A DNA stretch of 64,000 nt from a virus (lineage: Duplodnaviria > Caudoviricetes): positions 1 through 64,000 of the IMG/VR virus record IMGVR_UViG_3300008107_000043, one strand, 5' to 3'. Position 1 is the stretch's first letter. Each line of letters starts with the position of its first letter. Shown here one piece after another: positions 36,129 through 45,484 of this stretch. Both the position numbers and the translations under genes were made by a program. The notes below the pieces were generated by a model. The model was not told the origin of the DNA and searched no databases. It saw nothing but the letters and a program-made list of their open reading frames with translations.

Positions 36129-39100
36129 ATGTTAAACAAACAGACAACTTTAGATCTAAACGGTCCAATTCTATCATTTACTACAAATCCTGTTGGAGCA
36201 GCAACTACTAATGGTGGGTCTGCAACTTTTATAGGTATTGCAACCGCAACATTTCCCATACAAACCCCACCAAATCCTGCAATACCTACTGGATATATTT
36301 CTTACCGATGGTATGATCAAAATGGACCATTAACTGATGGTGCAAATGTAACTGGATCTGCAACTACAACATTAACTATTTCTAATGCAGTTAGTCCAAC
36401 TGATCATAATAGACAATTTTATTTAAATGCGGATTATATACCATCTGCATATGGAGAAAATCCAATTACAGTTGGTACTGCAAGATCAACTGGAAATGCA
36501 ATAAATGACCCAATTGTATCTAGTAGTGCGGTTTTAACGGTCTATCCAATACTATCAGTAACAAGACAACCTGTTAGTAGTACTATTGGACAAAACTCAG
36601 ATACGAGATTTGTTACTGATGCATCAATTACAGATACTAGTCGAGGAAATATTTCTTATCAATGGCAATTAAATGGTTCTGATCTTTCAGACACTCTAAC
36701 TATACAAGGTTCTAAAACAAAAGAACTTTTAATTTCTTTACCAAATATTGGGATTAATACTGTTAGAGCAAAAATTACTCATCCCACTGCTTCAAACTCT
36801 CCATTATATACAAATAATGCCAATCTTGATGTAGTTGCTCCTAGAAAAATTCTTAATGTCGAAGTAATTCGGGATGATAACAGTGCTGAGGCACTATTAT
36901 ATTCTTGGAATATTGTTACTCAAGGTCCATATACAATAAATCCAGACCAAGTACCGCCAGGAAGTATTCTTACATTTTATGCACCAGAACTAAGTATTGA
37001 TGCATATATCGATATGTACGGAACTGCTGGTGCAAATTATGGAACTTTTGTTGGAGGAAGAGGTGGAGTATCTACAATCAGATTAACATTAAATAAAAAT
37101 CAAGAATATGCTGTCACACCTCTTTCTCCAATTAAAAATGGTGGAGGTGTTTTTCTATATAAAAAAGCAAAATTAATTGCTGTTGTTGGTGGGGGAGGAA
37201 ATGCGGGAAAAAATGGTAGTGGTGGTGATGGTGGTGGTGTTAACGTAGCAGGTCAAGATGGTAGTGGTGGTAGTAAAGGTGGAAGTCTAGGAACATTATC
37301 TCCAAATGGTATATTTGGTTCTACTGTTCAATTCGTAACACTTAAATCTGGAGATACTTTAGCAATTGCTCCCAACGGAGGTAGAGTACTGCCCTGCACT
37401 AAAGGAGAATATTGGGCCGCCCAAGGATTTTCTGCTTGTACTGATGTTGGAAATACAAAATATTATACACCTACTGCAGGAGTAAGTACAAATACAGCAA
37501 CAATTACAAGAGGATATAAGCCAGGATATGGAATTACTGGCACTGCAGGACTAGGAATAAATTTTGGAGGCAATGGTGGCAGTGGTGCAACTGGAGGCAA
37601 TGGTGGTAACGGTGGTGGTGGAGGAGGTGGAAGTGGATATAGTGATGGGTCTGTAATAATTACTTCTACGCAACAAGGTGGTAATGCTGGTCTTGGAAAA
37701 GTTGTAATTCGCGAATATGTACCACCGCCACCACCACCACCGCCTCCACCACCACCGCCACCGCCATCTTGTCCTGCTCCATGGACAAAGATCTTAATGT
37801 CTGATGGAACTCTTAAGAATGCTGGTGATTTAGTGGTTGGAGATATTCTCAAAACACAGCATAAAGATACCTTAGAATGGGGAGAGTATCCAATTACATA
37901 TAAAAAAGTAAGTCCTTCAGAAAGATTAAAACTCACTTTTGAAGAGTCTAACTTTACTTGCTCTCCAACTCATAAAATGTATGTTGAGGGTAAAGGTTGG
38001 ATATTAGTTACTGATATGGTAATTGGTGATGTTGTAAGTAACCAAAAATTATTGTCGGTAGAACCTGATGAAAGTGGTGATGTTATTGTTATTGAAGTTG
38101 ATGAGGCATATACTTTTATTGGTGAAGGATTGTTATCTCGTACAGTGAAGATAGAATTAACAGAATCTCCACTGCCAATTTTTAATCAATTTCCAAAGAT
38201 TTTGATGTCAGATGAGACTCAAAAAAATGCTAGAGATTTGAAAGTTGGTGATTTAATTAAAACTCAACATGAACATACTTTAGAATGGGGAGAGTATCCA
38301 ATTACACATAATTCAACATTACAGTCGGAAAGATTAAAACTTACTTTTGATAATGCTAAGGTTATTTTTTCTCCAACTCATAAAATGTATGTTGAAAATA
38401 AAGGTTGGATTAGAGTTTGTGATATGGTAATTGGTGATATTGTAAGTAATCAAAAATTAATAAGTGTGGAGAATGTTGAATATGGTGATGTTGTTTCAAT
38501 TGAAGTTGATGACGCACATACTTTTATTAGTGATGGATTATTATCGCACAATAGAAGAAATTCACCTCCACCACCGCCACCACCATTTACATTACCACGA
38601 ACGCAGCAAGACCCCTTGTTAGCATTTGTGTCACCACCACCTCCTCCACCGCCACCAAAAGCACCGCCACCACCTCCTCCACCGCCACCAAAGCCACCCC
38701 CACCACCGCCGCCACCGCCGCCACCACCTCAGCTGGCACCATCTTGTCCTGCACCCTGGGCAAAGATATTAATGACTGACGGGACCCTTAAGAATGCAGG
38801 TGATCTAAAAGTTGGTGATTTAATAAAAACTCAAGATGAACACACTTTAGAATGGGGTGAATACTCTGTATTAAAAGTTTCTATCGTTCAAGAAGATAGA
38901 TTTAAAATGAAATTTGACCACAAAGATTTGGTCTGCTCAACATCTCATAAAATGTATGTTGAAAATAAAGGTTGGACTAGAGTTTGTGATATGGTAATTG
39001 GGGATATTATAAGTGGACATACCTTACTTGAAATTGATGATTATGAATATGGAGATGTCGTTGCAATTCAAATTAAGGGTGCTCATACTTATATCTGTGA

Positions 39101-39593
39101 AGGATTATTATCTCACAATTTAAAGATAGTTACTCCACCACCTCCTCCACCAGCACAACCTCCTCCACCACCACCATTTACATCCTGTCCTGCTCCATGG
39201 ACAAAGATATTAATGGCAGATGGAACTCAAAAGAATGCTGGAGACCTAAAAGTTGGTGATTTAATCAGAACTCGACATGAGCATACTTTAGAATGGGGTG
39301 AATACTTAATTGATTATGTTAAGCAAGTTGATTCTGAAAGATTGAAAATTATCTTTGATCATGTTGAATTTACTTGCTCACCTACTCACACATTTTATAG
39401 TGAAGAAAATGGTTGGATTTTAGCTTGTAGTTTAAAAATAGGTGATATTATTTCTGGACATACGATTATAAAAATTGAAAGTGCAGAACCTGGAAAGGTT
39501 GTTGCAATTCAAGTTGATGGTGGTCACACCTATATCTCAGAAAACTTATTATCTCACAATAAACTAGTTGCACCCCCACCAACAGTCAAATAA
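36129..39593 (+). CDS. virion-type protein: Ig-like domains, Gly-rich domain, four tandem Hint domains with polyproline linkers
   Basis: ISYRWY/ISYQWQ Ig-like motifs; GGGGGSGY; four copies of KILM.D.T.KNA.DL.VGD...S.(T/S)H...V..I...TY/F...LLS. Confidence 0.85.
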   Translation: MLNKQTTLDLNGPILSFTTNPVGAATTNGGSATFIGIATATFPIQTPPNPAIPTGYISYRWYDQNGPLTDGANVTGSATTTLTISNAVSPTDHNRQFYLNADYIPSAYGENPITVGTARSTGNAINDPIVSSSAVLTVYPILSVTRQPVSSTIGQNSDTRFVTDASITDTSRGNISYQWQLNGSDLSDTLTIQGSKTKELLISLPNIGINTVRAKITHPTASNSPLYTNNANLDVVAPRKILNVEVIRDDNSAEALLYSWNIVTQGPYTINPDQVPPGSILTFYAPELSIDAYIDMYGTAGANYGTFVGGRGGVSTIRLTLNKNQEYAVTPLSPIKNGGGVFLYKKAKLIAVVGGGGNAGKNGSGGDGGGVNVAGQDGSGGSKGGSLGTLSPNGIFGSTVQFVTLKSGDTLAIAPNGGRVLPCTKGEYWAAQGFSACTDVGNTKYYTPTAGVSTNTATITRGYKPGYGITGTAGLGINFGGNGGSGATGGNGGNGGGGGGGSGYSDGSVIITSTQQGGNAGLGKVVIREYVPPPPPPPPPPPPPPPSCPAPWTKILMSDGTLKNAGDLVVGDILKTQHKDTLEWGEYPITYKKVSPSERLKLTFEESNFTCSPTHKMYVEGKGWILVTDMVIGDVVSNQKLLSVEPDESGDVIVIEVDEAYTFIGEGLLSRTVKIELTESPLPIFNQFPKILMSDETQKNARDLKVGDLIKTQHEHTLEWGEYPITHNSTLQSERLKLTFDNAKVIFSPTHKMYVENKGWIRVCDMVIGDIVSNQKLISVENVEYGDVVSIEVDDAHTFISDGLLSHNRRNSPPPPPPPFTLPRTQQDPLLAFVSPPPPPPPPKAPPPPPPPPPKPPPPPPPPPPPPQLAPSCPAPWAKILMTDGTLKNAGDLKVGDLIKTQDEHTLEWGEYSVLKVSIVQEDRFKMKFDHKDLVCSTSHKMYVENKGWTRVCDMVIGDIISGHTLLEIDDYEYGDVVAIQIKGAHTYICEGLLSHNLKIVTPPPPPPAQPPPPPPFTSCPAPWTKILMADGTQKNAGDLKVGDLIRTRHEHTLEWGEYLIDYVKQVDSERLKIIFDHVEFTCSPTHTFYSEENGWILACSLKIGDIISGHTIIKIESAEPGKVVAIQVDGGHTYISENLLSHNKLVAPPPTVK
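37770..38144 (+). other. Hint domain 1 (Cys1 present, ends SRT, no His-Asn)
   Basis: CPAPWTKILMSDG...CSPTH...EGLLSRT. Confidence 0.8.
38178..38552 (+). other. Hint domain 2 (Cys1 lost, ends His-Asn, +1 Arg)
   Basis: IFNQFPKILMSDE...FSPTH...DGLLSHN-R. Confidence 0.8.
38745..39119 (+). other. Hint domain 3 (Cys1 and His-Asn, +1 Leu)
   Basis: CPAPWAKILMTDG...CSTSH...EGLLSHN-L. Confidence 0.85.
39186..39560 (+). other. Hint domain 4 (Cys1 and His-Asn, +1 Lys)
   Basis: CPAPWTKILMADG...CSPTH...ENLLSHN-K. Confidence 0.85.
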
Positions 39594-39597
39594 AAAT

Positions 39598-40167
39598 TCA
39601 ATCGTTATAAACGGGAGCGGCATGTGGATCATAAGTCAAAAAAACGCTTAATGTCTGCCTAACGCCGCTCTCAACTTTTTTAACTCCATGTGTAAATTTT
39701 AAATCTGCTGGATGAACAACTAGCATTCTTGGTTCTGGTTTAACTTCTATATTCAAATTTGGATAATATAGTTCTCCTCCAACAAAAGAACTATTAAAAT
39801 AAAGAACACTTCCGTGCGATCTCCAAGGAGATGCATTTGGAGTAACTCCATCTTGCTCAATATTATCTGCATGTGGAGTAAGTTCTACTTTATTTTCCCA
39901 CCTAACAAATTGTGGATATTCTATAAAAAGTTTTTGGTCAGATATAGAAGTTTTCTCTACAACACTTCTAATTGATACAATTAACTTAATTAATTTTTCT
40001 CTAACTTCTTCTTCCTTAATTGAAGAATAATATATGCATCTTTTGGACCAGTAATCTTCTGAACTTATATGTTGATCATATGAAGATTTATTTTCTTCTA
40101 CCCAGTTTAAAAAATAATCATTTTCTTCTTCTGTAATAAAATTTCTAATTACCAATGGATAAGACAT
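39598..40167 (-). CDS. 2OG-Fe(II) oxygenase, prolyl-4-hydroxylase-like
   Basis: VIRNFITEEE, HADN (HxD), SVLYFNSSFVGGELYY, HGVKKVESGVR. Confidence 0.85.
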   Translation of the reverse strand: MSYPLVIRNFITEEENDYFLNWVEENKSSYDQHISSEDYWSKRCIYYSSIKEEEVREKLIKLIVSIRSVVEKTSISDQKLFIEYPQFVRWENKVELTPHADNIEQDGVTPNASPWRSHGSVLYFNSSFVGGELYYPNLNIEVKPEPRMLVVHPADLKFTHGVKKVESGVRQTLSVFLTYDPHAAPVYND

Positions 40168-40248: not shown

Positions 40249-42345
40249 ATGGCAATTAAAAAAGCGTTTGTTATAAAAGACGGATTAGAAGTTAATTCCG
40301 ACGTTCTTATTGTAAGCAGTCAAACTAAAAATGTTGGCATAGGTTCTACTATTCCGAGAGTAGAATTAGATCTACGTGGTAGGTTTATTGCAACAGATTC
40401 TTATCTAACAGGAATCTCAACTGTTATAAACGAATTAAACGTAGGATCAAATGGAACGGTTCTTACAGCATTAGGTAGTGGTTCTGTTGGTGTAGGAACA
40501 GCACTGCCAAACTACTTATTAGATGTTCGTTCTTCAGTCTCTACAGGACAAACAGCACTCTATGTTCAAGGTGATTCAAATATTACTGGAAAGTTGGATA
40601 TTGGGGGTAGTATATCCTTTAGTGGGTTTACTGCACTTAATGCCAATATCACTGGTATTGCAACAATTGGAACAGTACAAATATCTTCAGGTATTGTAAC
40701 TGCTACAAGTACAAGTGGTGTTGTAACTTATTATGGTGATGGTTCTAAACTTACTAATGTTGCTGCTTCTTCTGCTGTCTATGCTATAAATTCTGGTATA
40801 GCAACTTATGCTACCTCTAGTGGTATTTCTAGTACTGCTACTTATGCTACTTCTAGTGGTATTGCTACTTATGCTACCAGAGCAGGAATATCAACTTATG
40901 CTACTAATGCTGGAGTAAGTACCTATGCTACCTCTAGTGGTATAGCAACTTATGCTACTTCTAGTGGTATTTCTACTACTGCAACTTATGCTACCTCTAG
41001 TGGTATAGCAACTTATGCTACTTCTAGTGGTATTGCTACTTATGCTACCAGAGCAGGAGTAAGTACCTATGCAACCTCTAGTGGTATTGCTACTTATGCT
41101 ACCTCTAGTGGTATTTCTTCCACACTTACTGCAACCGCATCAGTTAATACTACTGGCATCATAACAGCATCATCATTCGTTGGAAATGGTTCTGGATTAA
41201 CAAATTTACCAACAGTTTTTAGTGGTATTGCTACATCAGTTATAGGTGGTATTGCATCTGTTACACAATTAAATGTTTCTGGTGTTTCTACATTTACAAA
41301 TGGACCTGTATTAGTCGGAGTAGCAACAGCAACAGGAACTGCATCACAACCACTTCAAGTAACTGGTGGTGCTTATGTAAGTGGTAATCTTGGAGTTGGC
41401 GTCACAAATCCACAAGAAAAACTTCACATTTATGGAGGAAACGTTACTAGTCTTGAGATAACGGCAGATTCTGAACCAAACATTAATTTTAATACCACTG
41501 ATGGTTTAAGAAACGCTACTTTATTCAATTCTTATGGTAGTGTAGGACTTGTTGGATATGGTCCATCATCCAATTATATTTTATATCATAATAATAGCAG
41601 TGGAGTTCTTAACAATCAATACACTTATTTCCAAGTAGCTGGACAGGAGGTATTAAGACTTGTACCCGGTACAGCACTTATTGGTTCTGGAACTTCAACA
41701 GGAACTGCATCACAAAAACTTCAAGTAACTGGTGGCGCTTATGTTTCCGGTAATTTTGGAATTGGGTCCACAAATCCATCTCAACCTCTACACGTTCAAG
41801 GTAATGCAAGAGTTACTGGAGGAATTTATGATTCCAATAATCAAATAGGTACTTCAGGACAAGTTTTACAATCTATTGGAACTGGTATAAGTTGGACAAC
41901 ATTTTCTGGTGGTGCTACATTATCAAATGATACAACTACTAATGCATCATATTATCCAACATTCAGTTCTGCTACTTCTGGTACATATACTACAGCATAT
42001 GTTTCTGATACTAAATGTACATTTAACCCATCAACGGGTACATTATCAGCAACTCAATTTACATCACTATCAGACGCAACTCAAAAAACTAACGTAAGAC
42101 CTATAGAAAATCCAATTGAAATTACAAAACAACTTGATGGAGTTAGGTTTGATTGGATAAATACCAATAAACCTTCACTTGGTCTGATTGCTCAAGAAGT
42201 TGAAAAAGTACTTCCAGAACTCGTTGAAACTAATAGTGATGGTATTAAGTCAGTAAGTTATTCTAATATGGTTGGACTTTTAATTGAAGCAATCAAAGAA
42301 CAACAAATTCGTATTGAAGAACTGGAGAGAAAGTTAAATGTCTAG
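40249..42345 (+). CDS. tail fibre with C-terminal intramolecular chaperone (peptidase S74)
   Basis: VGIGST repeats; SLSDATQKTN...GLIAQEVEKVLPELV...LLIEAIKEQQ. Confidence 0.88.
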   Translation: MAIKKAFVIKDGLEVNSDVLIVSSQTKNVGIGSTIPRVELDLRGRFIATDSYLTGISTVINELNVGSNGTVLTALGSGSVGVGTALPNYLLDVRSSVSTGQTALYVQGDSNITGKLDIGGSISFSGFTALNANITGIATIGTVQISSGIVTATSTSGVVTYYGDGSKLTNVAASSAVYAINSGIATYATSSGISSTATYATSSGIATYATRAGISTYATNAGVSTYATSSGIATYATSSGISTTATYATSSGIATYATSSGIATYATRAGVSTYATSSGIATYATSSGISSTLTATASVNTTGIITASSFVGNGSGLTNLPTVFSGIATSVIGGIASVTQLNVSGVSTFTNGPVLVGVATATGTASQPLQVTGGAYVSGNLGVGVTNPQEKLHIYGGNVTSLEITADSEPNINFNTTDGLRNATLFNSYGSVGLVGYGPSSNYILYHNNSSGVLNNQYTYFQVAGQEVLRLVPGTALIGSGTSTGTASQKLQVTGGAYVSGNFGIGSTNPSQPLHVQGNARVTGGIYDSNNQIGTSGQVLQSIGTGISWTTFSGGATLSNDTTTNASYYPTFSSATSGTYTTAYVSDTKCTFNPSTGTLSATQFTSLSDATQKTNVRPIENPIEITKQLDGVRFDWINTNKPSLGLIAQEVEKVLPELVETNSDGIKSVSYSNMVGLLIEAIKEQQIRIEELERKLNV
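40780..41118 (+). repeat. coding tandem repeat YATSSGIAT, about 12 copies
   Basis: 27-nt units (some 36 nt) such as TATGCTACCTCTAGTGGTATAGCAACT. Confidence 0.9.
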
Positions 42346-43555
42346 ACCCAATCAGTTTTTATCTCCGGAAGGTGATTTGGAAGATTATTTTGTAGATGAA
42401 TATTGGTTAATTGACCAGTATGTTGGTGATACTTTATGGGTTTGGGGTGGAAATAATTCAAATCAATCGGGATCATTGGGAGACAATACATCAGTCTCTA
42501 GATCTACTCCAGTTACTACAATTGCGGGAGGAGCAAACTGGAAATCTGTTGCTGTTGGATATGGACATAAGTTTGGAATTAAAACTGATGGAACTTTGTG
42601 GGGTTGGGGGGCAGATTATGATGCTATGTTGGGGACCAATGCCAGTAATTTGCTTGCAAGATCTACTCCAGTCACCACATTTGCAGGAGGAACCGACTGG
42701 AAACAAGTTTCTTGTGGTTATTATTTTTCTGCAGCGATTAAAACTGATGGAACTCTATGGACTTGGGGAGCTAATACCGCTGGACAACTTGGAATTAATA
42801 GTACAATTAAGAAATGTACTCCAGTCACCACATTCGCAGGAGGAAACAACTGGAAACAACTTTCTTGTGGATATGCAAGAATAGCAGCAATCAAGACTGA
42901 TGGAACTTTGTGGACTTGGGGAGTTGGTAATAGTGGAGAGATGGGAAGTAATACTGCAATAGATAGATCCACTCCAGTTACTACATTCGCGGGAGGAACC
43001 AACTGGAAACAAGTTGCTTGTGGAACTTATCATACTGCAGCAATCAAGACTGATGGAACTCTATGGACTTGGGGAAGTAATTTTGCATCACTAGGAGACA
43101 ATACGGTAATCAATAGATCCACTCCAGTCACTACATTCGCAGGAGGAACCAACTGGAAACAAGTTGCTTGTGGGTTTAGTTATACTGCAGCAATAAAAAC
43201 TGATGGAACTCTATGGGGTTGGGGAAATAATAGTAATGGTCAACTAGGAGACAATACTTCAACCAGTAGATCCACTCCTGTCACCACATTTGTAGGAGGG
43301 ACCAACTGGAAACAAGTTGCTGCTTCCAATAGCAGTTATCATACGGCAGCAATAAAAACTGATGGAACTCTATGGGCTTGGGGTGATAATGGATTTAGTG
43401 GTTCTGGTGGGATGATAGGAGACAACACAATATCCTCTAGACTCACTCCAGTTACAACATTTGCAGGAGGATCAAACTGGAAACAAGTTTTTGTGGGAAG
43501 GTCTCAAACTGCAGCAGTCACATCAGGTACTGATCCCACCTACTTCATCTCATAA
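42338..43555 (+). CDS. RCC1/BLIP-II-like beta-propeller protein 1
   Basis: Seven repeats of TPVTTFAGGTNWKQV.CG..HTAAIKTDGTLW.WG. Confidence 0.9.
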   Translation: MSRPNQFLSPEGDLEDYFVDEYWLIDQYVGDTLWVWGGNNSNQSGSLGDNTSVSRSTPVTTIAGGANWKSVAVGYGHKFGIKTDGTLWGWGADYDAMLGTNASNLLARSTPVTTFAGGTDWKQVSCGYYFSAAIKTDGTLWTWGANTAGQLGINSTIKKCTPVTTFAGGNNWKQLSCGYARIAAIKTDGTLWTWGVGNSGEMGSNTAIDRSTPVTTFAGGTNWKQVACGTYHTAAIKTDGTLWTWGSNFASLGDNTVINRSTPVTTFAGGTNWKQVACGFSYTAAIKTDGTLWGWGNNSNGQLGDNTSTSRSTPVTTFVGGTNWKQVAASNSSYHTAAIKTDGTLWAWGDNGFSGSGGMIGDNTISSRLTPVTTFAGGSNWKQVFVGRSQTAAVTSGTDPTYFIS

Positions 43556-43572: not shown

Positions 43573-44235
43573 ATGTACGCACTAGTTAATGGTCAAGAAT
43601 TACTTTTAGGACCAATCACATTCAACTACAGAATGATTAATTCAGTTCTTGAAGATGAACTTGAAGTAGATTATAGGGTGACTTCACAAGACTATCAATC
43701 AGTTCCTATTATTTTTAATGAAGAGATTAAAATTCTTCCAGCAAGAAATGAGATTCCAGAGTTTGATCCAAGATTTCAAACAGTATCCCAAACAAGTCAT
43801 ACAATTGCAGATGATGAAGTAGTCTTTGTTTATACTGTTTCCGATAAACCACTTGAGCAAATTAAAGACGAATACAAAGCAGGTGTAAAACCAGAAAGAC
43901 AAAGAAGAGAAAGTACTAGGGTTGAAGTTACTATTAATAATTCTACAATTACAGTAGCAACAGACAGAGAAAATCGTTTAGCACTTACTTCAAAGTACAT
44001 TGCAGGACCTGGACCTCATAACTTTAAGTTTGATAATGGAACTTGGTTAGAAATCACCACAGAAGATTTGCAAACCATTATTCAAGCAGTGGATTCAAAA
44101 GTTCAAGAAGCATATGATTGGGAACTTGCAAAACTTCAAGAGATTGATGCTTGTGAGACTAAAGAATCTGTTTATGAAGTAGAGATTGTTCCACCTGTAG
44201 AAATGCCTGGAGTAGTTCAAAATGCCCAATCCTAA
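43573..44235 (+). CDS. DUF4376-like tail-fibre-associated protein
   Basis: LEQIKDE...R..RE...TDRENR...FKF...W...VQEAYDWE; ATAAATA at 43552-43558. Confidence 0.65.
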   Translation: MYALVNGQELLLGPITFNYRMINSVLEDELEVDYRVTSQDYQSVPIIFNEEIKILPARNEIPEFDPRFQTVSQTSHTIADDEVVFVYTVSDKPLEQIKDEYKAGVKPERQRRESTRVEVTINNSTITVATDRENRLALTSKYIAGPGPHNFKFDNGTWLEITTEDLQTIIQAVDSKVQEAYDWELAKLQEIDACETKESVYEVEIVPPVEMPGVVQNAQS

Positions 44236-45484
44236 TACCAACTTTAAAGATTCTTTTGGTACTGATTTAGGCAATAAACTCATTACCAAAGAATACTTAA
44301 TGACTGTGTATCCACAGATTGCAAATCAGTTGATTACTCCAGAACTTTGGGTTTGGGGATATAGTGGTTTTGGACAATTAGGAAACAATAATTCATTAGT
44401 AAATATATCTACACCAATCACAACAATAGCAGGAGGAGCAAACTGGAAACAAGTTTCTTGTGGATATCGGCATACGGCAGCAATCAAAACTGATGGAACT
44501 TTGTGGACTTGGGGATTTTCCAATAGTAATAATAAAGGTTCTGTAGTTGTTGTAGGAACACTTGGTATAAATGACACAACTACATTTATTAGATCCACTC
44601 CAGTTACTACATTTGCAGGAGGAACCAACTGGAAACAAGTTTCTTGTGGAGGTAATTTTACAGCAGCAATCAAAACTGATGGAACCTTATGGACTTGGGG
44701 AAATAATAGTAATGGACAACTAGGAGACAATACAGGAACCAATAGACTTACTCCAGTCACAACATTTGCAGGTGGAACCAACTGGAAACAAGTTGCTGGG
44801 GGGGGATACAGTACAGCAGCAATCAAGACTGATGGAACACTATGGACTTGGGGATATGGTGCATTTGGGCAACTAGGAGACAATACAACTACATTTATTA
44901 AATCCACTCCAGTCACAACATTCGCAGGAGGAACCAACTGGAAACAAGTTTCTTGTGGACAATATCATACAGCAGCAATCAAAACTGATGGAACTTTGTG
45001 GGGTTGGGGTGAGCCTGGTGGAGGGAGACTTGGAGATAATACAAATCTAACAAGTAAACTTACTCCAGTCACAACATTTGCAGGAGGAACTAACTGGAAA
45101 CAAGTTTCTGGTGGAAATAATCATACCGCAGCAATCAAGACTGATGGAACCTTATGGACTTGGGGTAGTAATACTTCAGCAGGAGTACTTGGGATTAATA
45201 GTTCAAATGCCGCTCTTAATATATCTACTCCTGTTACTACATTCGCAGGAGGAACCAACTGGAAACAAGTTGCTTGTGTATCCGGTACTATAAATGCAAT
45301 CAAAACTGATGGAACTTTATGGATTTGGGGATCTAATAATCTTGGACAACTAGGAGATAATACAATAATCTCCAGATCCACTCCAGTCACAACATTCGCT
45401 GGAGGGACCAATTGGAAACAAGTTTCTGCTGGACCTAATTATACTGCAGCAATCAAAACTTCAGATGATTTGCAAGGTATCTAA
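44222..45484 (+). CDS. RCC1/BLIP-II-like beta-propeller protein 2
   Basis: Seven repeats of the same unit. Confidence 0.9.
   Translation: MPNPNTNFKDSFGTDLGNKLITKEYLMTVYPQIANQLITPELWVWGYSGFGQLGNNNSLVNISTPITTIAGGANWKQVSCGYRHTAAIKTDGTLWTWGFSNSNNKGSVVVVGTLGINDTTTFIRSTPVTTFAGGTNWKQVSCGGNFTAAIKTDGTLWTWGNNSNGQLGDNTGTNRLTPVTTFAGGTNWKQVAGGGYSTAAIKTDGTLWTWGYGAFGQLGDNTTTFIKSTPVTTFAGGTNWKQVSCGQYHTAAIKTDGTLWGWGEPGGGRLGDNTNLTSKLTPVTTFAGGTNWKQVSGGNNHTAAIKTDGTLWTWGSNTSAGVLGINSSNAALNISTPVTTFAGGTNWKQVACVSGTINAIKTDGTLWIWGSNNLGQLGDNTIISRSTPVTTFAGGTNWKQVSAGPNYTAAIKTSDDLQGI

Follow-up and report, generated by a model that had tools for sequence, protein, structure and literature searches.

Four tandem Hint domains with polyproline linkers in a candidate tail-module protein of an uncultured cyanophage-like virus

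Layout of the Hint-array protein

An open reading frame (ORF) at positions 36129-39593 of a 64,000-nucleotide stretch of DNA (the window) from an uncultured cyanophage-like virus encodes a protein in which two immunoglobulin (Ig)-like domains and a glycine-rich domain are followed by four tandem Hint domains with proline-rich linkers. We consider it moderately likely that this C-terminal half is an autoprocessing Hint array resembling type A bacterial intein-like (BIL) domains, which would free the Ig-Ig-glycine-rich body. The window belongs to an IMG/VR virus record of 78.5 kb (IMGVR_UViG_3300008107_000043), which is estimated to be 35% complete. The features of the ORF are listed below (aa, amino acids; AF2, AlphaFold2).

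36129-39593 (+): whole ORF, open, 1154 aa plus stop
36162-36842 (+): two Ig-like domains, aa 12-238 (AF2 model, VIA-align, Foldseek)
36909-37721 (+): ALK-type glycine-rich domain, aa 261-531 (AF2 model, VIA-align)
37722-37769 (+): Pro15-Ser linker, aa 532-547; Pro run at 532-546, Ser547 as the -1 residue of Hint1, mixed Pro codons
37770-38144 (+): Hint1, aa 548-672; Cys1 and block B SPTH present, block F His replaced by Tyr, His-Asn replaced by Arg-Thr
38145-38177 (+): 11-aa linker VKIELTESPLP, aa 673-683; dead junction, the sole inter-Hint linker without a proline run
38178-38552 (+): Hint2, aa 684-808; no Cys1 (IFNQF instead of CPAPW), block B SPTH, block F His and Ser-His-Asn present, +1 residue Arg809
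38553-38744 (+): 64-aa Pro-rich linker, aa 809-872; Pro runs of 7, 8, 9 and 12, two Lys
38745-39119 (+): Hint3, aa 873-997; all catalytic motifs, +1 residue Leu998, followed by Lys999
39120-39185 (+): 22-aa Pro-rich linker, aa 998-1019; two Pro6 runs, PPVTN-type in orthologues
39186-39560 (+): Hint4, aa 1020-1144; all catalytic motifs, +1 residue Lys1145
39561-39590 (+): 10-aa tail KLVAPPPTVK; KLVAP also follows the second Hint of the family protein P0002

The original prediction for this DNA had proposed the succession from Pro15-Ser-Hint1 to the KLVAPPPTVK tail, with R, L and K as +1 residues, and both hold on the translated ORF (R809, L998 and K1145). It had also described long DNA-identical stretches between the repeats, which was an overstatement. 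Pairwise, the repeats share 66-76% identity in DNA, with longest identical runs of 17-33 nt, and 55-66% in protein. The repetition goes well past what chance would give: within the 78.5-kb record, Hint3 finds the other three repeats at E values of 1e-47 to 1e-52, and nothing beyond the four repeats matches it.

Inspection of the catalytic residues shows that block B S-x-x-H is present in all four Hints. Cys1 and His-Asn occur together in Hint3 and Hint4 only, as Hint1 has no His-Asn and Hint2 no Cys1. Hint1 keeps the N-terminal catalytic set and ends with Ser-Arg-Thr; Hint2 keeps the C-terminal set. The two dead sites face each other at the only junction without a proline run, and in our reading of the sequences this junction (SRT-VKIELT-ESPLP-IFNQF) resembles a decayed copy of the Hint3-Hint4 linker (SHN-LKIVT-polyPro-FTS-CPAPW). 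Because both sites at their shared junction are lost, Hint1 and Hint2 would behave as one unit in which Cys548 and Asn808 are live, and the array reads as three units, each with one predicted live N-site and one predicted live C-site. The earlier scheme of four-domain processing is thereby kept as regards autoprocessing-type repeats and amended to three units, Hint1 and Hint2 sharing a dead junction. By our own estimate, the chance that a random dead N-site and a random dead C-site flank the same junction is 3/16, so the pattern of dead sites alone is not significant.

Fold and identity of the Hint domains

The whole protein scores above the Pfam gathering thresholds for Hom_end_hint (45.9 bits versus 32.1) and Intein_splicing (38.2 versus 35.8), and each single repeat falls under every Pfam gathering score. 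The best Pfam match of Hint4 is PT-HINT (PF07591), at 20.8 bits versus a gathering score of 27.7, which places it outside that family, and the other repeats have no PT-HINT match at E<=10. Matches of single repeats to AXH and MS_channel, also under the gathering scores, look spurious and were disregarded. Of the NCBIfam models, the short intein_Cterm alone reaches its cutoff (23.2 bits versus 15.6, at Hint2), the rest being far under. As originally predicted, there is no endonuclease domain: Pfam scans of the protein and of its repeats matched no endonuclease family.

Modelling of the repeats against Hint and BIL structures, which had been put forward as a check, bears out the Hint assignment for Hint3. 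Its AF2 model, with a predicted local distance difference test (pLDDT) score of 78.7 on only 4 aligned sequences, adopts a Hint fold, and BILs are the nearest solved structures. The best match is BIL2 of BUBL (6y75/6tmm; Foldseek E 5e-8, TMq 0.76), and the C. thermocellum BIL (2lwy) is matched at a Foldseek E of 1e-7. The gp41-1 and DnaB mini-inteins and the Hedgehog Hint come next, with the matches to BIL, mini-intein and Hedgehog structures spanning E values of 5e-8 to 1e-5 and TMq values of 0.65-0.76. All 47 PDB chains found at E<=1e-3 (ranks 1-47) are BILs, inteins or Hedgehog Hint. A profile-to-PDB sequence search returned the same set of structures, with BUBL BIL2 as the best match and 2lwy at E 1.6e-4. 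The repeats therefore have the fold of the Hint superfamily, and its N-terminal Cys is found in Hint1, Hint3 and Hint4, not in Hint2. A BFVD fold search retrieved Hint-bearing proteins of uncultured Caudovirales, without functional names. The ESM Atlas provided cluster-level leads only, namely clusters of PT-HINT and of Intein_splicing, in which the few members assigned to a taxon are 'Viruses 100%'.

The likeness to BILs that had been proposed is borne out by the Hint fold, Cys1, SxxH, the block F His, the C-terminal His-Asn, the lack of both a +1 nucleophile and an endonuclease, and the location in a variable extension of the host protein. Type A BILs have no +1 nucleophile and mostly cleave, and they can ligate when the amine freed at the C-junction attacks the N-terminal thioester (Mills et al. 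2014, PMC4031507). BILs are located in non-conserved regions (PMC2814812). The window array agrees with type A BILs, such as that of C. thermocellum, in fold, terminal residues and variable-region location. It differs in its host, a tail-module protein of a phage and not a protein secreted by bacteria, in that it has four tandem copies, polyproline spacers and a family-wide +1 Lys, and in being remote from 2lwy (19% identity in the structural alignment), its activity here being predicted. Class 1 mini-inteins, such as gp41-1 (6qaz) and Ssp DnaB (1mi8), share the fold, the size of about 125 aa, Cys1, block B, block F and His-Asn. In contrast to these, the window Hints are tandem, lack a Cys/Ser/Thr at +1, and form a C-terminal extension instead of interrupting an essential enzyme at a conserved site, so they do not qualify as class 1 inteins.

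A wider family of nucleophile-free Hints

When 1.84 billion entries were searched with the four-repeat profile, 2127 cluster representatives matched at E<=1e-3; the number falls to 448 at E<=1e-10 and to 78 at E<=1e-30. We took 163 full-length family domains, covering profile positions 2-125 at E<1e-15, from the hits clustered at 50% or 90% identity, leaving out the window protein and two true intein hosts; the sample favours domains that are similar to the query profile. Its catalytic residues hardly vary, with Cys1 in 160/163 domains, a block B Ser in 156 and a block B Thr in 5 more, block B His in 163/163, block F His in 153/163, the penultimate His in 163/163 and Asn in 162/163. By a separate count, the +1 residue is Ser, Thr or Cys in only 3/163 and Lys in 126/163, and Lys or Arg occurs within +1 to +3 in 160/163. 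This near-universal Lys at or next to +1 suggests, as far as sequence conservation can, that an amine takes part in the chemistry. At the other end, 119/163 domains are preceded by Ser, Gly or Thr at -1. The flanks of the domains are 16-19% proline, and in 24/162 the Hint lies no more than 15 aa from the C terminus of the protein.

The family hosts that we examined are phage-like structural proteins, among them DUF4815 proteins, Arg/Pro-rich proteins and one named 'predicted phage tail protein', and the domain sits at the N terminus, in the middle or at the C terminus of unrelated ones. In P0006, a VrlC-type structural protein, the 98-aa leader, Hint and linker are an N-terminal add-on, since cultured homologues match only from about residue 292. 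Judged from these sequences, the family appears coherent and widespread in uncultured marine phages. A tblastn search with Hint3 found no close relative among 50,697 GenBank phage records, its only matches being to an uncultured phage (31% identity) and to terminase inteins of Corynebacterium phages (25%). Scanning viral contigs with a profile of the four aligned repeats gave 8 loci, 5 of them from the same lineage, and says nothing on the frequency of the family in IMG/VR because the patterns were too specific.

Most family proteins have one Hint: among 195, there is one copy in 166, two in 22, three in 3, four in 3 and five in 1, several of the multi-copy counts being one domain split by an insert. 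No other protein among the 195 has more than two full copies of the window Hint subtype. More distant units do occur in tandem. P0091 (2780 aa) has five Hint-like units of the form CFL...HN-Ala, P0182 has three distant-type units, and P0188 and P0193 have two each, all without a +1 nucleophile; P0158 has at least four abutting units, but with Cys or Phe-Cys after His-Asn. Tandem nucleophile-free arrays are thus not confined to the window phage, as P0091 and P0188 have them too. P0188 has a pilin-like hydrophobic N terminus, after which come its two tandem Hints, each ending in HN-Lys.

Two further motifs were seen in the family. In a group of Arg/Pro-rich proteins (P0055, P0057, P0104, P0109, P0110, P0118, P0120, P0123, P0126 and P0143), the Hint is interrupted after about profile position 37 by an insert in which L-E-[NS]-S-[YF]-A, e.g. 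LENSYAKA, is a conserved motif; additional domains of inteins are often found at this place. In P0016, P0052, P0032-P0037 and P0041, a short stretch after the Hint contains an SD(I)xLKTNI-like or CDIRTK-like motif, which we take to resemble the start of tail-fibre self-cleaving chaperone domains.

Conservation and origin of the four copies

The protein has a full-length orthologue, 1167 aa long and 91% identical, on three viral contigs whose metagenome identifiers differ; a fourth orthologous contig is cut within Hint1, and a fifth, short one holds the gene end. These orthologues have the same four-Hint layout and identical dead sites at the Hint1/Hint2 junction. An assembly artefact was rejected, because the polyproline is encoded by mixed CCA/CCG/CCT/CCC codons and the layout recurs on these other assemblies, full-length on three contigs and partial on two more.

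Between the window and the orthologues, the Hints are almost unchanged, whereas the linkers are rewritten, from polyproline to PPVA and PPVTN repeats, and are 13 aa longer; at the position of the Pro15-Ser linker, the orthologues have Pro14. This argues against the earlier idea that peptides of a particular sequence are released from the linkers. In a comparison of the window with the orthologue L005, the ratio of non-synonymous to synonymous substitution rates (dN/dS) is 0.12 for the Hints (32 synonymous and 16 non-synonymous differences) and 0.24 for the N-terminal body. It is 0.09 for Hint4 alone, despite only 10 aa following it. As judged from these ratios, the Hint domains are under purifying selection. 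Among the four copies, the paralogue dS is 0.5-1.0, and the catalytic residues have been kept in Hint3 and Hint4.

These data bear on a first alternative, in which the Hints perform no chemistry and are kept as folded spacers between stiff polyproline rods, lengthening a whisker or fibre. Linker lengths that change fast, as in length-tuned fibres, would fit such a role, as would the folded add-ons that other homologues of the protein bear at the same C terminus and the fact that catalytic residues are already gone from one junction. Independent duplication would fit as well: Hint domains have been duplicated repeatedly inside genes across the family, with sister copies within one protein in P0060, P0056 and P0058 (99-100% support) and in P0003 (88/71). 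Yet Cys1, His-Asn and the +1 Lys would not be retained if the domain were purely structural, and catalytic residues without a structural role are nearly invariant across the 163 domains and preserved in Hint3 and Hint4 despite the paralogue dS. We regard inert spacers as distinctly unlikely.

In a maximum-likelihood tree, the four copies form one clade with 96/95 support, in the order (H3,(H4,(H1,H2))), from which it follows that they arose by duplication inside the gene; repeated invasion was rejected as their origin. The tree speaks to a second alternative, i.e. that the Hint with its Pro-rich flanks and +1 Lys is a selfish or neutral cassette without a role, spreading among phage structural genes, which we judge quite unlikely. 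Such a passenger would cut itself off and so leave the host protein unharmed, a notion to which we give the same low credence. It is in keeping with the varied positions of the domain in unrelated structural proteins, including those of the DUF4815 and VrlC types, and with the usual form of the host module, which is Hint-less. On the other side, no homing endonuclease or other mobility function was seen in the Pfam scans, the copies multiplied within the gene, and a C-terminal passenger with nothing downstream would be under no pressure to remain active, yet Hint4 has the low dN/dS given above.

The N-terminal body

The N-terminal body has no Pfam match and no meaningful PDB sequence match, so its folds are known solely from an AF2 model, which was built on 36 homologues and has a pLDDT of 82.1. 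The two Ig-like domains and the Gly-rich domain originally predicted are both recovered in this model. As assessed by VIA-align, aa 12-238 match MuSK Ig1-2 (Z 13.7, root mean square deviation (rmsd) 4.4, 184 aligned) and Robo2 Ig (Z 12.9), and Foldseek finds Ig tandems at E of about 1e-9. Pfam Ig_3 matches 18/36 of the aligned body homologues, the window protein itself not being among them. From aa 261 to about 532, the model matches the glycine-rich domain of human ALK (7ls0; Z 13.3, rmsd 3.2, 192 aligned, 22% identity), 7nx3 (Z 13.2) and the invertebrate ALK glycine-rich domain 7lir (Z 10.9). The ALK/LTK glycine-rich domain has a TNF-like fold plus polyglycine, and by fold the window domain belongs to this type, though residues 389-420 of the model have pLDDT values below 50. 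Pfam PF12810 does not match the window protein and is precomputed on only 1/120 of the listed body homologues.

The body module is very common, with 2018 matches among 8000 scored candidates. Most of its more than 2000 homologues are about 540 aa long, and some lie on contigs of about 200 kb. Of the best 120 homologues, 59 have lengths of 525-574 aa and hence end right after the glycine-rich domain, others bear different C-terminal add-ons, some of them folded, and none (0/120) has a Hint. Because most homologues stop after the glycine-rich domain and others bear other add-ons, the C terminus of the module appears to be a plug-in point, at which the Hint array would be one rare plug-in. Besides the orthologues, the body was seen together with Hints only in P0002 (two Hints) and P0016 (one). 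When the whole protein was used in tblastn, the cultured cyanophages P-TIM68, S-SM2, Bellamy and SynMITS9220M01, all cyanomyoviruses, matched in the N-terminal body only, and the Hints were never matched in cultured cyanophages.

Proposed processing of the array

The autoprocessing that we favour starts from established properties of the array, i.e. its fold, its catalytic residues, their family-wide conservation and the purifying selection, and domain activity and ligation would follow by likeness to BILs. An N-to-S acyl shift at Cys548, Cys873 and Cys1020 would turn the preceding peptide bond into a thioester, and succinimide formation at Asn808, Asn997 and Asn1144 would cut the chain. Because no Cys/Ser/Thr follows Asn, the canonical branched intermediate cannot form, and the thioesters would then be hydrolysed (cleavage) or attacked by an amine (ligation). 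Hint1-Hint2 would act as a single unit, through its N-site at Cys548 and its C-site at Asn808. The most likely main outcome would be release of the Ig-Ig-glycine-rich body ending in Pro15-Ser, a product similar to the orthologues of roughly 540 aa that other cyanomyoviruses have without Hints. The remaining parts (the Hint1-Hint2 unit, Hint3, Hint4, the Pro-rich spacers) would be shed or in part joined again, ligation being a possible side or main reaction.

Several points weigh against autoprocessing of this kind. One Hint suffices to release the body, and four copies and very long proline runs are left unexplained by it. The family is, as far as its sequences tell, remote from characterised Hints, because single repeats all fall under the Pfam gathering thresholds. 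The Hint3 model is of moderate confidence, its last 16 residues, including His-Asn, scoring 53-61. The dN/dS for the Hints rests on 48 differences and one orthologue lineage, and that of Hint2 alone is 0.36. The virion placement of the protein comes from its gene neighbourhood only. Finally, catalytic conservation could partly reflect recent common descent, an objection against which the conservation across 163 diverged domains argues.

A third alternative is splicing without a nucleophile, in which the three units would excise and the flanks re-join through the freed alpha-amine of Arg809, Leu998 or Lys1145. We think this unlikely, and likewise its predicted product, a continuous 112-aa Pro-rich tail, possibly hydroxylated, in which the Hints would have been intein-like passengers of a polyproline stalk. 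Joining needs exactly one live N-site and one live C-site per proline-bounded unit, as is found here, and a small -1 residue (Ser/Gly/Thr in 119/163) and the conserved +1 travel with the domain. Type A BILs can splice in this way, but cleavage products dominate in those that have been studied (PMC4031507). Moreover, no Hint-less orthologue with a comparably long proline tail was found, most ending after the glycine-rich domain or bearing folded add-ons, and the 24/162 family Hints close to the C terminus would have little left to join. Splicing draws its remaining support from the gene next door:

39598-40167 (-): 189-aa 2-oxoglutarate-Fe(II) (2OG-Fe(II)) oxygenase, candidate prolyl hydroxylase (PF13640, 30.9 bits versus a gathering score of 27)

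This gene is convergent with the Hint ORF and ends 4 nt from its stop codon, and the only PDB sequence matches of the product are prolyl 3- and 4-hydroxylases, which are weak (E 2e-4 and about 0.04). It adjoins the Hint ORF in all orthologous contigs. It is missing from the fetched flanks of the Hint-less relatives L009, L010-L015 and P-TIM68 and of the other Hint loci L022-L024. The viral prolyl 4-hydroxylase of PBCV-1 acts on Pro-Ala-Pro-Lys repeats (PMC3634087), and the linker of the orthologues contains KAPPPKAPKPPAP. As a lead only, the oxygenase may hydroxylate the polyproline linkers; its association with the array may be due to chance, because it is seen in a single lineage.

A bolder interpretation takes its cue from BUBL. 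BUBL BIL2 is reported to link the upstream domain to a Lys side chain through an isopeptide bond, without ATP (PMC8616854). The family-wide Lys after His-Asn is notable because BUBL BIL2, the closest structure, reportedly ligates to a lysine side chain. By analogy, the window Hints might be single-use ATP-independent ligases, in which the thioester at a live Cys1 is captured by a Lys side chain, an idea that we hold to be improbable. The capturing Lys, on the same slender odds, would be the conserved +1/+2 Lys, a linker Lys or a Lys of another particle or host-surface protein. The outcome, equally improbable, would be a branched or cross-linked polyproline structure, or a covalent hook to a partner. 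Were this true, there would be thioester-driven covalent assembly in a phage tail, by a family widespread in uncultured marine phages. BUBL1 BIL2 (6y75, 6tmm; Tetrahymena) is the best match to the window Hints in both structure and PDB sequence, and it too belongs to a repeated array in one polypeptide. However, it is eukaryotic and flanked by ubiquitin-like domains, whereas the window Hints, at 17-18% identity, are flanked by proline-rich spacers without folded cargo. The inter-Hint segments are 11, 64 and 22 aa long and Pfam finds no domain in them, so the window array is not of the BUBL kind.

Relation to other Hint systems

Known Hint domains occur as inteins in enzymes of replication and packaging and as BILs in proteins that bacteria secrete, and they also act in toxin release and Hedgehog processing. 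Pretoxin HINT (PF07591) is the precomputed Pfam label of several family members, besides being the best single match of Hint4. As described in PMC3482391, it is an autoproteolytic Hint in a long filamentous or fibre-like protein that releases what follows. It differs from the window Hints in that none of these is followed by a toxin domain and their host is a phage structural module. In the full-text literature searched, which does not cover most subscription journals, no paper was found to describe Hint or intein-like domains in tail, fibre or structural proteins of phages; the matches concern terminase, helicase or reductase inteins only. Within this same literature, no phage system with the layout of the window array is described, in line with what had been stated at the outset. 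The kind of domain is already known. As far as we have seen, no description exists of the phage-structural family, its signature Lys or the polyproline array of four copies. If the domains are active, many marine phages would process or covalently join tail proteins by intein chemistry, and protein engineers would be interested in domains of roughly 125 aa that work without a +1 nucleophile. Of the family members seen, the array of four copies with polyproline is the most extreme, and it is a convenient test object.

Gene neighbourhood

The genes around ORF 36129-39593 form a T4-like myovirus tail and baseplate module, in which several fibre proteins are encoded along with a tail tube cap and a gp5-like hub and lysozyme. 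The gene immediately upstream is for a fibre protein of 1944 aa (phrog_529); in P-TIM68, the homologue of the body likewise comes after a giant 'putative fiber protein'. From this tail and baseplate neighbourhood only, we infer that the Hint-array protein is located in the virion. No near-identical DNA was found in GenBank phages. A 157-aa ORF on the minus strand, at 37463-37936, was rejected as a gene, since it is a poly-Gly reverse reading of Pro and Gly codons.

Downstream, at 40249-42345 (+), lies a gene for a 698-aa fibre-like protein that has many near-identical ATYATSSGI-type repeats in its middle. The C-terminal roughly 100 aa of its product match the ends of many tail-fibre PHROGs and presumably correspond to a self-cleaving chaperone, tail-fibre domains of this sort being, we assume, of the Peptidase_S74 type. 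The likeness of such chaperones to the Hint array would be functional only, in a C-terminal part of a fibre-region protein that perhaps removes itself once its task is done; fold and chemistry are unrelated. Two proteins with RCC1 repeats ('regulator of chromosome condensation') are also encoded within the tail-fibre region, at 42338-43555 and 44222-45484 (+).

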